DNA from: a bacterium
GTDB taxonomy: Bacteria > Thermotogota > Thermotogae > Mesoaciditogales > Mesoaciditogaceae
Direction: 5' to 3'
Length of the DNA: 64,000 nt
Assembly (NCBI GenBank): GCA_021800445.1
Contig: JAJYYZ010000006.1
Coordinates: 420-64,419 of the forward strand
Positions within the stretch are counted from its first letter, which is position 1. Each line of letters starts with the position of its first letter. The notes beneath the pieces are model-generated. The model was not told the origin of the DNA. It worked only from the letters and a program-made list of their open reading frames with translations, and did not search any database. Of this stretch, positions 28,946-31,251 are shown piece after piece. The position numbers were made by a program, and so were the translations under genes.

Positions 28946-30256
28946 TTAAACATTTTCAAAGTATTCTCTTATTTCCCAATCTGTAACTGCCGTAGAAAAT
29001 TTCTTCCATTCCGTTTCTTTCATCCTCAAAAAGATTTCAAAGGCTTTTTCTCCAAGGGTTTCTGCTACTAACTTATCCTTTTTCGAAAGTTCGAGTGCTT
29101 CAATAAGATTTGAAGGAAGAGATTTTATCTTATTTTCTGTTTTTTCTGAATCACTCATTTTGAATATATTTTGATTTATCGGCTTTGAAGGTATAAGATT
29201 TCTTTTTAAGCCATCAAGTCCGGAGGCGAGAATGACGGCAAAAGCCAAATAAGCGTTGCACGAAGAATCAGGACTTCTGTACTCAAGCCTTGTTCTTTCA
29301 CCTCTTGCCTGAGGAATTCTTACGAGTGCGGATCTGTTGCTCACCGCCCACGCAACATTTACGGGTGCTTCATAGCCGGGGACAAGTCTTTTGTAAGAAT
29401 TAACGGTTGGATTTGTTATGGCCGTTATAGCCCTTGAATGTTCAAGAAGACCTGCGACAAAATGTGTAAAAGTTTCGCTTAACTGGTATTCCCCGTTTGG
29501 ATCGTAAAAAGCATTTTGTCCGTCTTTAAAGAGACTTATATGTACATGCATTCCAGAACCATTTATACCTTCTATGGGCTTTGGCATAAAAGTTGCACGT
29601 AACCCATTTTTTATCGCTATTGTTTTAACTGCAAGTTTAAATGTTTGAACCCTATCCGCAGTTGTTAAAATATCCGCATATCTGAAATCTATTTCATGTT
29701 GTGAAGGAGAAACTTCATGATGATCCGCTTCAACCTGAAATCCCATTTCTTCAAGCGTTTGAACTATTTCACGTCTTGCAAGTTCGCTTCTGCTTAGAGG
29801 CAACATATCAAAATAACTTCCGGAATCGACAAAAATATTCTTAAGATTAAGCCCGTCTCCTTCGAAGATGAAAAATTCTGGTTCCGGTCCGGCATGGGCA
29901 TCAAAACCCATTTGACGTGCCTGATCGACGACCTTTTTTAGAATGTACCTTGGAGATTCTTCACAATTACTTCCATCTGGCTCCATGACATCGCATATGA
30001 TCCTTGCCGCTTTTGAATCTTCCCATGGAATTAAAGTAAAAGTTGATAAATCCGGTTTCAGATACATGTCTGATTCGTTTATTCTCGCAAAACCTTCGAT
30101 GGAAGAACCATCAAACATTACCTTGTTATCGAGCACACGGTTGATATCCGAAGTGGGAACGCTTACCTGCTTTAGCGTACCATCCAAATCCGTAAATTGA
30201 AGTCTCACGATCTTTACATTTTTTTCTTTGATGATTTTAAGTAATTCTTCTTTCAT
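28946..30256 (-). CDS. glnA: Glutamine synthetase type I
   Basis: MFDGSSIEGF, GPEPEFF, HHEV..SQHEIDF, NGSGMHVH, SYKRLVPGYEAP and RLEYRSPD motifs; ATG 30256 is properly spaced from the AGGAGG RBS. Confidence 0.97.
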   Translation of the reverse strand: MKEELLKIIKEKNVKIVRLQFTDLDGTLKQVSVPTSDINRVLDNKVMFDGSSIEGFARINESDMYLKPDLSTFTLIPWEDSKAARIICDVMEPDGSNCEESPRYILKKVVDQARQMGFDAHAGPEPEFFIFEGDGLNLKNIFVDSGSYFDMLPLSRSELARREIVQTLEEMGFQVEADHHEVSPSQHEIDFRYADILTTADRVQTFKLAVKTIAIKNGLRATFMPKPIEGINGSGMHVHISLFKDGQNAFYDPNGEYQLSETFTHFVAGLLEHSRAITAITNPTVNSYKRLVPGYEAPVNVAWAVSNRSALVRIPQARGERTRLEYRSPDSSCNAYLAFAVILASGLDGLKRNLIPSKPINQNIFKMSDSEKTENKIKSLPSNLIEALELSKKDKLVAETLGEKAFEIFLRMKETEWKKFSTAVTDWEIREYFENV

Positions 30257-30273
30257 CCGCATACCTCCTATAC

Positions 30274-30308
30274 AAAAATTAAGGCCGGTGATTCTATCTC
30301 ACCGGCCT
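30274..30308 (-). terminator. Attenuator terminator in the glnA leader
   Basis: AGGCCGGUGA-GAUAGAA-UCACCGGCCU followed by UAAUUUUU, immediately before the glnA RBS. Confidence 0.88.
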
Positions 30309-30332
30309 CTTGGGAATTTCTTTTATCAAAAA

Positions 30333-30395
30333 TCAACCCCATCGACCAGTGTCGATCGGATTATTATTGTTATTTGTCTTAAAAAAAATGAACAT
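30333..30395 (-). CDS. Asn-rich leader peptide MFIFFKTNNNNNPIDTGRWG (below ORF-track cutoff)
   Basis: GGAGG RBS at 30402-06, 6 nt before the ATG; codons AAT AAC AAT AAT AAT at 30360-74; TGA at 30333. Confidence 0.82.
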   Translation of the reverse strand: MFIFFKTNNNNNPIDTGRWG

Positions 30396-30423
30396 GCTTT
30401 GCCTCCAAAAATCCTTTTGGAAA

Positions 30424-30452
30424 ATCATAGCACAAAAAACTTATGTTGTCAA
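30424..30452 (-). promoter_or_regulatory. Sigma70 promoter of leader-glnA
   Basis: TTGACA (30447-52), 17 nt, TATGAT (30424-29). Confidence 0.88.
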
Positions 30453-30500
30453 TACGCACGCACAGACGTACCTAAAATTCTTTAAGAAAATGTAAACAGT

Positions 30501-30668
30501 TATACTGAATTCACTTTAAAAGTCGAATGCTTATTTACCGAAACGGAAAACATGATGCCGAGAGGTGGCTTTTTCAAAAAAACTACCCTCTGCTGCGGTT
30601 AACTACTCCCTATAGACGAGGGGGTCTTCTTTGAAAGAAATAGATAAATAGACATTCAACTTGATATA
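30501..30668. mobile_element. MITE family 2, degenerate copy
   Basis: TATACTGAATTCACTTTAAAAGTCGAATGCTTATTTACCG at 30501-40; possible eroded other end near 30645-68. Confidence 0.55.
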
Positions 30669-30735
30669 TATCACAAAGGCCGTTTTTGTGATATCATACT
30701 TTATGTGTAAATTCGATCGGGAGGAAGTGTAAACG

Positions 30736-31251
30736 TTGTTAGACTTGAAATCTTACATAAGGGACATTCAGAATTTTCCGAAGGATGGAGTCGCATTTAA
30801 AGATATAACGCCACTTTTAAAGAGTCCAGAAGCTTTTGCCTTTGCGATTGAAGAAATGTCAAAAATTGTCGCCGAATGGAGTCCAAATAAAATTGTCGCG
30901 GCTGAAGCAAGAGGATTCATCTTCGCGGCGCCCATAGCGTATAATCTAAAGGTTGGATTTGTTCCGATAAGGAAACCCGGTAAATTACCTTACTTTACGG
31001 TAAACGAAGAATATTACCTCGAATACGCCAAAGCAAAGATCGAAATGCACGTTGATGCCATCGATCCGAATGAAAAAGTTGTCATAATAGATGATATACT
31101 TGCAACAGGCGGAACCTCGCTTGCTATGGCACATCTTGTTGAGAAATTGGGAGGCATCGTTTGCGGTATGGCTTTTCTTGGCGAACTCTCTTTCCTTGAA
31201 CCAAGAAAAAATCTTAGAAATTACGATGTTAAAAGTCTTTTGACATATTGA
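30736..31251 (+). CDS. apt: Adenine phosphoribosyltransferase
   Basis: EARGF, RKPGKLP and VIIDDILATGGT motifs. Confidence 0.96.
   Translation: MLDLKSYIRDIQNFPKDGVAFKDITPLLKSPEAFAFAIEEMSKIVAEWSPNKIVAAEARGFIFAAPIAYNLKVGFVPIRKPGKLPYFTVNEEYYLEYAKAKIEMHVDAIDPNEKVVIIDDILATGGTSLAMAHLVEKLGGIVCGMAFLGELSFLEPRKNLRNYDVKSLLTY

Follow-up and report, generated by a model that had tools for sequence, protein, structure and literature searches.

A probable attenuator with asparagine control codons upstream of the glutamine synthetase gene glnA in Athalassotoga (Thermotogota)

Introduction

What is a short reading frame with five consecutive asparagine (Asn) codons doing directly upstream of glnA, a gene whose product makes glutamine (Gln)? 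The question is raised by a 64-kb window of DNA, the whole stretch analyzed here, which is contig C45 of a 2.05-Mb genome with 39% G+C. The closest named relatives of this genome are Athalassotoga sp. KM4364-07, whose glnA is 98% identical, and Athalassotoga saccharophila NAS-01. Athalassotoga is a hot-spring bacterium of the Thermotogota, a phylum in which we know of no glnA regulator. An earlier note on the window had described an attenuator of the trp/his type upstream of glnA and had suggested that the charging of tRNA(Asn) stands in there for the supply of glutamine or amide nitrogen. The analysis reported here leads us to conclude that the leader is probably a ribosome-mediated transcription attenuator, one in which the availability of Asn-tRNA(Asn) would determine how often transcription continues into glnA.

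Architecture of the glnA leader

All of the leader elements described in the earlier note are present, on the minus strand and directly upstream of glnA. They are listed below in the direction of transcription (SD, Shine-Dalgarno sequence; uORF, upstream open reading frame).

30424-30452, minus strand: promoter, with a -35 box TTGACA (30452-30447), a 17-nt spacer and an extended -10 element TGcTATGAT (30432-30424); 11 of 12 consensus matches
30402-30406, minus strand: SD sequence GGAGG of the leader peptide, with the ATG 6 nt later, at 30395
30333-30395, minus strand: leader peptide uORF of 20 codons, MFIFFKTNNNNNPIDTGRWG, with stop codon UGA at 30335-30333
30360-30374, minus strand: control codons AAU AAC AAU AAU AAU, five consecutive Asn
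30341-30356, minus strand: hairpin 1 (regions 1:2), AUCGAC-ACUG-GUCGAU, arms 30356-30351 and 30346-30341
30300-30351, minus strand: antiterminator (regions 2:3), CACUGGUC at 30351-30344 with GGCCGGUG at 30307-30300
30272-30309, minus strand: intrinsic terminator (regions 3:4), GAGGCCGGUGA, 7 nt and UCACCGGCCUU, then AAUUUUUGU; 11 bp, 7 of them G-C

The -10 box proper is TATGAT (30429-30424), with the TG of the extended element at 30432-30431, and this promoter is the top promoter-like site between 28500 and 31500. Its noted form, TTGACA-17-TATGAT, was confirmed, and the arrangement TTGACA / TGnTATNAT is common to the glnA leaders of all six relatives (6/6). Hairpin 1 starts 3 nt past the last Asn codon, and the UGA of the uORF sits within the 5' strand of the antiterminator. 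The terminator, which with its U tract precedes the ribosome-binding site (RBS) of glnA, has a stem of 11 bp (arms 30309-30299 and 30291-30281; 10 bp in the earlier note), and the antiterminator pairing is extended by a helix of GGGG (30340-30337) with UCCC (30315-30312; UGGGG with UCCCA in the earlier note), on which it is stacked together with an apical A/U helix. The concern that resequencing might change the T8 run and so remove the Asn frame is dispelled by G004, a relative that is 98% identical and has GTTTTTTCT, of equal length and in the equal frame. Open reading frames of this kind are rare in the genome, as only three of at most 45 codons contain four or more consecutive Asn codons, two of these being the glnA leader and a paralogue upstream of asnA.

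A small hairpin, CCAAAA-GGAU-UUUUGG (30408-30423, minus strand), lies at the 5' end of the leader and overlaps the first G of the uORF SD sequence; it is kept in G004 and not in G001.

Proposed mechanism and alternative folds

In the mechanism that we propose, transcription would start about 7 nt past the -10 box and a ribosome would translate the 20-codon leader. With Asn-tRNA plentiful, this ribosome would reach the UGA at 30335-30333 and cover region 2 (30351-30337), region 3 would pair with region 4, the terminator stem (30309-30281) would form, and a leader transcript of about 140 nt would be released near 30274. With Asn-tRNA scarce, the ribosome would stall on the control codons (30374-30360) and cover the 5' arm of hairpin 1, region 2 would pair with region 3 as the antiterminator, and RNA polymerase would read into glnA. 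Without translation, hairpin 1 would hold region 2 and termination would follow. We infer the stalling response, the efficiency of termination and the physiological logic from this arrangement.

Computed folds are consistent with such a choice. The window leader folds at z = -4.2 relative to 200 shuffles, and its region 2 (30351-30344) has two possible partners, region 1 and the 5' arm of the terminator, region 3 (30307-30300). Energies at 37 C are -7.0 kcal/mol for hairpin 1, -16.3 for the antiterminator and -21.5 for the terminator. The antiterminator is the minimum free energy (MFE) fold if region 4 is left out or if region 1 is masked. When masking mimics a ribosome at the Asn codons the antiterminator is obtained, and when it mimics one at the UGA the terminator is obtained, in agreement with the trp/his-type geometry, ribosome masking included, that had been claimed for the leader.

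Conservation and covariation of the leader RNA

The upstream regions of 30 glnA orthologues were compared. The same promoter, uORF, hairpins and terminator occur in all five of the other Athalassotoga-genus genomes with an assembled upstream region (5/5) and in G007 of a sister genus; the alignment that had been proposed as a check therefore finds uORF, hairpins and terminator kept in six further glnA leaders. Carriers include G004, G001, G003, G005 and G007, and the glnA leader of G006 is cut inside the terminator by the contig end. The N-terminus of the leader peptide is not conserved (MFVFSKT, MMFAFFRM, MNERYLIEKNFA and others) and the Asn run of the glnA leaders is 5, 6 or 8 codons long; the nucleotides after the run are conserved. 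Where these do change, as from GAC to GGU in G001, with pairing kept via G-U pairs, or from UUGGG/CCCAA to GAUUAG/CUAAUC in G007, the amino acids are altered and the pairing is kept, which indicates that selection here is on the RNA structure and not on the peptide.

Three sister genera in the same family, Mesoaciditogaceae (g3-g5, L008-L014), have a glnA without a leader, its start coinciding with the stop codon of the upstream gene or lying only a few bases from it. The C-terminus of that gene's product looks like PurE (…GIPVATMGIGK…), and glnA in these genera seems to lie in a purine-synthesis operon, another consumer of the glutamine amide.

Covariation was examined in a model-based alignment (A3) of 32 leaders, in which the terminator, hairpin 1 and the antiterminator all found support. 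The terminator-state structure (hairpin 1, apical helix and terminator) has 92.9% of its cells paired, with 11 pairs changed on both sides, a count that overstates independence, as the leaders are related phylogenetically. Its covariation score was reached by none of 500 shuffles, and controls in which the partner was slid were 15-48% paired. By helix, hairpin 1 is 87.9% paired across 31 distinct leaders, with 3 pairs changed on both sides, and the terminator is 96.5% paired with 4 such pairs. The apical helix is wholly different in sequence between lineages and is still paired, all four of its pairs (4/4) having changed on both sides. It should be considered that fitting to the covariance model favors the terminator-state structure in these pair counts.

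For the competing structure, 93.2% of the cells of the antiterminator basal helix are paired, compared to 15-52% with the partner slid, and one of its pairs covaries (UA in 13 leaders, UG in 8, CG in 7, with a single mismatch), such that a region 3 A at this position is accompanied by a region 2 U wherever the alignment holds. When region 4 is removed and the 9 nt that directly follow the Asn run are masked, each of the leaders (32/32) folds into an antiterminator of -15 to -31 kcal/mol, with a mean z of -3.8 relative to shuffles. We used the free-energy z-score here because counting the terminator-arm bases that pair upstream in MFE folds was not discriminating, as those of shuffles often pair too.

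A paralogous leader precedes asnA

A second copy of the leader, encoding MIMCLTCMTSKINNNNNSIDIGRLG, lies in the same genome at contig C7:26877-27039 (locus L119 2878-3040, minus strand). This copy has its own promoter, TTGACA-17-CATAAT, a uORF that closes with SKINNNNNSIDIGRLG and, downstream, UUUUUGAUAUAAAAAUCCCAAAAGGCCGAUGAG and then CUCAUCGGCC with UUUU. An RBS follows, and then a 317-amino-acid gene for an archaeal-type asparagine synthetase A (NF005054, 389 bits, cut-off 309). The glnA and asnA leaders of this genome have in common the peptide tail NNNNNSIDIGRLG and the fold. Between the two copies region 2 changes from CACUGGUC to CAUCGGUC, region 3 from GGCCGGUG to GGCCGAUG and region 4 from CACCGGCC to CAUCGGCC, and a joint change of all three is what would be expected if region 3 pairs alternately with regions 2 and 4. 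The paralogy considerably strengthens the suggestion that the leader senses Asn; the further suggestion, that the charging state reports on glutamine or amide nitrogen, we retain as an interpretation.

A covariance model, R1, was built from seven leader sequences and searched in 151 genomes of the class Thermotogae. Each Athalassotoga-type genome has two matches, and one is found in the rest of the family and in members of at least five other families. At 23 of the 24 best R1 loci that do not precede glnA, an asnA homologue follows (52-88% identity). Asn-run leaders before asnA occur in at least about 35 of the 151 genomes, a figure made up of about 33 genomes with matches at E <= 1e-4 (matches from 30 were checked, all with an Asn-run uORF) and two weaker true matches (L153 and L154, Asn leaders before asnA). 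These two came from 12 inspected matches at E values of 4e-4 to 0.009, among which were also two leaders with other codons and eight plain terminators. A tally of 57 of the 151 genomes was rejected as overstating the spread, the weak matches including plain terminators without an Asn uORF (L151, L152, L155-L160).

Outside the class, R1 also matches leaders of asnA in Caldisericota, among them that of Caldisericum sp. AR60 (MERVRLVVAINNNNNNNNSPGAGRFG), and finds no match at the asnA loci of Thermoplasmata (archaea), Aminicenantes or Bipolaricaulota. No Asn-run leader was present at 80 glnA loci of other phyla (Bacillota, Acidobacteriota, Deinococcota and others). We take this distribution to indicate that asnA is the ancestral and widespread target of the leader in Thermotogota and Caldisericota. 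The glnA leader is 73-77% identical to the asnA leaders of its own family and probably arose by duplication of one, the C7 copy being its likely source; judging by sequence, the two leaders of the window genome form a small Asn regulon of asnA and glnA.

The asnA genes of Caldisericum/Caldisericaceae (L175, L177-L179) are 63-70% identical to that of Athalassotoga and carry the same Asn leader, which suggests that a leader-asnA cassette has been transferred between hot-spring lineages; L175 is a 3-kb contig that could be misbinned.

Several other loci found with the model differ from this pattern. L136 (G062:C1:791976-792085, plus strand) is a clear Asn leader (…SKDNNNNNRPGSVGYCFI) whose next gene is not asnA; a protein of more than 431 amino acids with a weak P-loop match is encoded about 200 nt downstream, and this gene could belong to the Asn regulon as well. 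In the asnA leaders L135, L142, L146 and L130, Asp codons are mixed into a shortened Asn run (VDNDNP, VDNNRW, NNNDNS), which could reflect decay of the sensor or joint sensing of Asn and its precursor Asp. L161 (G044:C56, minus strand, approximately 2369-2475) encodes a histidine leader peptide, MNNRIFSTLKWHHHHSNIYKSAPPDVLSLL, has a terminator in the GGUCGGUG/CACCGGCC style and precedes a gene whose product looks like HisZ or is HisRS-like, from which it would follow that Thermotogota also use classical his attenuation. L150 (G026:C1:1634594-1634696, plus strand) has the same terminator core, and its uORF carries many aromatic residues (…FYEKYFVMNMYWYIFGRDRPICRLV) in place of Asn; the gene downstream encodes a periplasmic amino-acid-binding (Liv-like) protein of the ATP-binding cassette type, and the locus could be an attenuator with a different specificity.

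Coupling of glnA to the leader and its possible purpose

Three forms of coupling between glnA and an Asn leader were found. In the first, glnA has its own leader, in Athalassotoga and the sister genus g2. The second is also a glnA with its own leader, in Thermotogae bacterium AUK213 (G024), where the uORF ends in SANAANNNWPGSACSMP and the antiterminator is a 13-bp pairing of GGCCUGUUCCAUG with CAUGGGACAGGCC; this leader is 64-67% identical to asnA leaders from outside Mesoaciditogaceae (AUK213's own included) and at most 60% identical to the Athalassotoga glnA leaders. Together these indicate that glnA has gained an Asn leader of its own at least twice. In the third form, found in UBA12178 (G018), leader, asnA and glnA stand in tandem with about 110 nt between the genes and no terminator-like or promoter-like site in that gap; glnA of UBA12178 is probably under Asn-leader control via a leader-asnA-glnA operon.

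Why should a leader that senses Asn be placed before glnA? The purpose that we favor is that falling charging of tRNA(Asn) would report a shortage of amide nitrogen, and that the raised level of glutamine synthetase (GS) would allow high-affinity ammonium capture and furnish glutamine to AsnB, to other amidotransferases and possibly to GatCAB. Set against a purpose confined to the Asn pathway, this reading seems to us evenly poised. To go further and take tRNA(Asn) charging, read via leader-peptide attenuators, as the main nitrogen-status signal in Thermotogota is a tentative and rather doubtful step; such a role would explain the repeated, independent recruitment of glnA.

The gene content of the window genome bears on these readings. 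The earlier note had recommended looking for asnS, asnB and gatCAB, on the view that the Asn amide comes from Gln via AsnB or by transamidation. The genome has AsnRS, Gln-dependent AsnB, GatB, a bacterial AspRS and AsnA, so AsnRS, AsnB and GatB were indeed found, whereas the GatCAB route is not needed for Asn-tRNA: with AsnRS, AsnB and AsnA present, Asn-tRNA can be supplied without transamidation, and AsnB provides at least one link from Gln to Asn. In the window genome two glutamate dehydrogenases were found, and no PII gene and no convincing large subunit of glutamate synthase. PII was found in only 4 of 41 Thermotogae relatives, leader-bearing or not; the idea that the glnA leader is specific to genomes without PII was rejected, as PII is rare throughout the sampled class.

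The first alternative to be considered keeps the same RNA switch and gives it a narrow purpose, in which glnA is an Asn-tRNA supply gene, its product Gln being the amide donor for AsnB/GatCAB, and the leader reports the need for Asn only. It differs from our preferred explanation only in physiological scope. In its favor, asnA is the leader's ancestral target, Gln-dependent AsnB is present in Athalassotoga and genus g2 (as is GatB), and glnA of UBA12178 lies directly behind asnA. On the other hand, no AsnB was found in the other two genomes that couple glnA to the leader, AUK213 and UBA12178, and with AsnRS present transamidation is not required. We consider a purpose limited in this way possible and somewhat improbable. 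The glnA link tracks Gln-dependent AsnB only partly, the same two genomes being the exceptions, and 'GS feeds AsnB' cannot therefore be the whole story, which favors the broader reading that amide-nitrogen shortage is reported.

Several observations nevertheless weigh against an attenuator of glnA that serves as a nitrogen sensor. As glnA makes Gln and not Asn, the end-product logic of attenuation is not strictly applicable. The two genomes in which AsnB was not found count here as well, as does a second type-I GS paralogue without a leader in the window genome, from which it follows that the leader is not the sole control of Gln synthesis. With respect to the RNA, the terminator is more stable than the antiterminator once region 4 exists, and the choice between them must therefore be kinetic, as in trp. 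Additionally, when region 4 is lacking and region 1 is unmasked, the antiterminator is preferred over hairpin 1 at equilibrium, so that the expectation of termination without translation depends on the order of folding alone. The relatedness of the leaders, mentioned above, reduces the weight of the covariation counts.

Translation of the uORF and remaining alternatives

Attenuation of this type requires that the uORF is translated, and the sequence features of the wider set of leaders are consistent with this. The Asn frame has a start codon and stays open through the run in every one of the 34 leaders examined, compared to 7 of 34 and 1 of 34 for the other two frames, and an SD-like motif precedes the chosen start in 32 of the 34. 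The leader peptides are 20-34 codons long. Their Asn runs comprise 4-11 codons in most relatives and only 2-3 in a few, with run length varying by whole codons and third positions that wobble (T 116, C 57) while AA is kept. The stop codon is always 2-11 codons past the Asn run, in or adjoining region 2.

These features also bear on a second alternative, namely that the terminator is run by a trans-acting factor, an RNA-binding protein or a metabolite, with the Asn run acting as a binding or spacer sequence. The conservation of AAUAAC-type repeats at the nucleotide level could be read in this manner, and the scarcity of PII among the relatives would be compatible with it. A binding or spacer sequence would not, however, readily account for an open Asn frame with its start and SD motif, for whole-codon changes in run length with wobbling third positions, or for a stop codon kept in or next to region 2, and there is no match to an Rfam family; we judge a trans-acting factor to be improbable.

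Least likely of all, and in our estimation very improbable, is that the uORF encodes a functional small peptide or that the hairpins act on mRNA stability or on glnA translation initiation rather than on termination, as the peptide tail PIDTGRLG, although conserved within Mesoaciditogaceae, is encoded by the nucleotides of hairpin 1 and region 2 and changes with them (D to G in G001, with G-U pairs; T to G and G to D in G007, where the partner strand has compensating changes), the same RNA architecture carries unrelated tails in other lineages (GPGSVG, WPIPVIFFV, KQRR), and the terminator stem, with a U-run behind it, does not include the glnA RBS.

The glnA locus

Downstream of the leader the following features were identified.

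30268-30264, minus strand: glnA RBS, GGAGG
28946-30268, minus strand: glnA with its RBS, type I glutamine synthetase (TIGR00653, 550 bits, cut-off 429)

Orthologues of glnA within the genus are 86-98% identical. Translation more probably starts at the ATG at 30256 than at the one at 30262, because the former is 7 nt after the SD sequence and is aligned with the MKEE start in relatives. A terminator-like hairpin 3' of glnA (28857-28837) suggests that the gene is probably monocistronic.

Upstream, 473 bp separate glnA from the divergent apt gene (plus strand, from 30736). A perfect 10-bp inverted repeat, ATATCACAAA-N7-TTTGTGATAT, lies beside the apt start (window positions 30670-30697). It is kept in G004, where it is found about 15 nt upstream of the glnA -35 box, whereas in the window the distance between repeat and box is about 200 bases greater. 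The repeat may serve as an operator, either of apt alone or of both divergent genes.

Comparison with known systems

The classical attenuators of Escherichia coli and Salmonella (trpL, hisL, leuL, thrL, pheL and ilvL; Rfam Trp_leader and His_leader) have the same SD-led uORF with a run of control codons, the same 1:2, 2:3 and 3:4 hairpins, a stop codon placed for masking of region 2 and a terminator that is the more stable structure. The glnA leader differs in that its control codons are for Asn, that it belongs to the Thermotogota, that it has no sequence similarity to the enterobacterial leaders, and that the product of glnA differs from the amino acid sensed, whereas in the asnA copy gene and sensed amino acid do correspond. 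It appears to have every structural trait of a leader-peptide attenuator that was tested and to depart from that class in one respect, the gene not making the sensed amino acid.

The asnA leader of Thermotogota and Caldisericota is homologous, with the same fold, a GGCCGRUG/CAYCGGCC terminator core and an Asn run, and its control of asnA would follow classical end-product logic. By comparison, the glnA copy is confined to Athalassotoga and one sister genus, with a separate origin in AUK213. T-box riboswitches with an Asn specifier, found in asnS, asnA and asnB leaders of Bacillota, bind uncharged tRNA and need no translation; they likewise couple tRNA(Asn) charging to a choice between terminator and antiterminator, whereas the leader described here has a uORF that is probably translated and no T-box match.

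Known controls of glnA are GlnR/TnrA in Bacillota, NtrC/sigma-54 with PII in Proteobacteria and the glutamine riboswitch (RF01739) in cyanobacteria. They have the same target and likewise match GS to nitrogen, whereas the signal here would be the charging of the tRNA for another amide amino acid, read by a ribosome. An Rfam cmscan of 29900-31000 with E values up to 10 gave sub-threshold chance matches only, the best being P26 (19 bits against a threshold of 36, mainly on the terminator stem), and no T-box or glutamine-riboswitch match in the leader. Nor did we find the GlnR/TnrA operator TGTNAN7TNACA anywhere in the window. The earlier note knew of no described Asn-codon attenuator for glnA, and searches of Rfam 15 and of full-text literature (which did not reach subscription journals) likewise yielded neither an attenuator with Asn codons nor an instance of glnA controlled by a leader peptide. 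As far as the literature searched reaches, the Asn leader of asnA is also undescribed.

Comparative support for the mechanism, which is unusually good, comes from two paralogous copies in one genome, from 34 leaders across two phyla and from covarying alternative helices. The leader would represent an attenuator that has been re-used, more than once, for a gene outside the pathway of the amino acid it senses. It also suggests that the status of amide nitrogen can be represented by the charging of tRNA(Asn), and it provides a handle on nitrogen regulation in Thermotogota, where PII was mostly not found. Both leaders are carried by Athalassotoga saccharophila NAS-01, which is cultured and has a complete genome; in its sequence AP019551 the glnA leader is at approximately 1948233-1948335 and the asnA leader at approximately 1798567-1798678, each on the minus strand. 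If Asn-tRNA charging were indeed the main nitrogen signal in these bacteria, it would constitute a translation-based alternative to nitrogen regulation by PII/NtrC and GlnR/TnrA.

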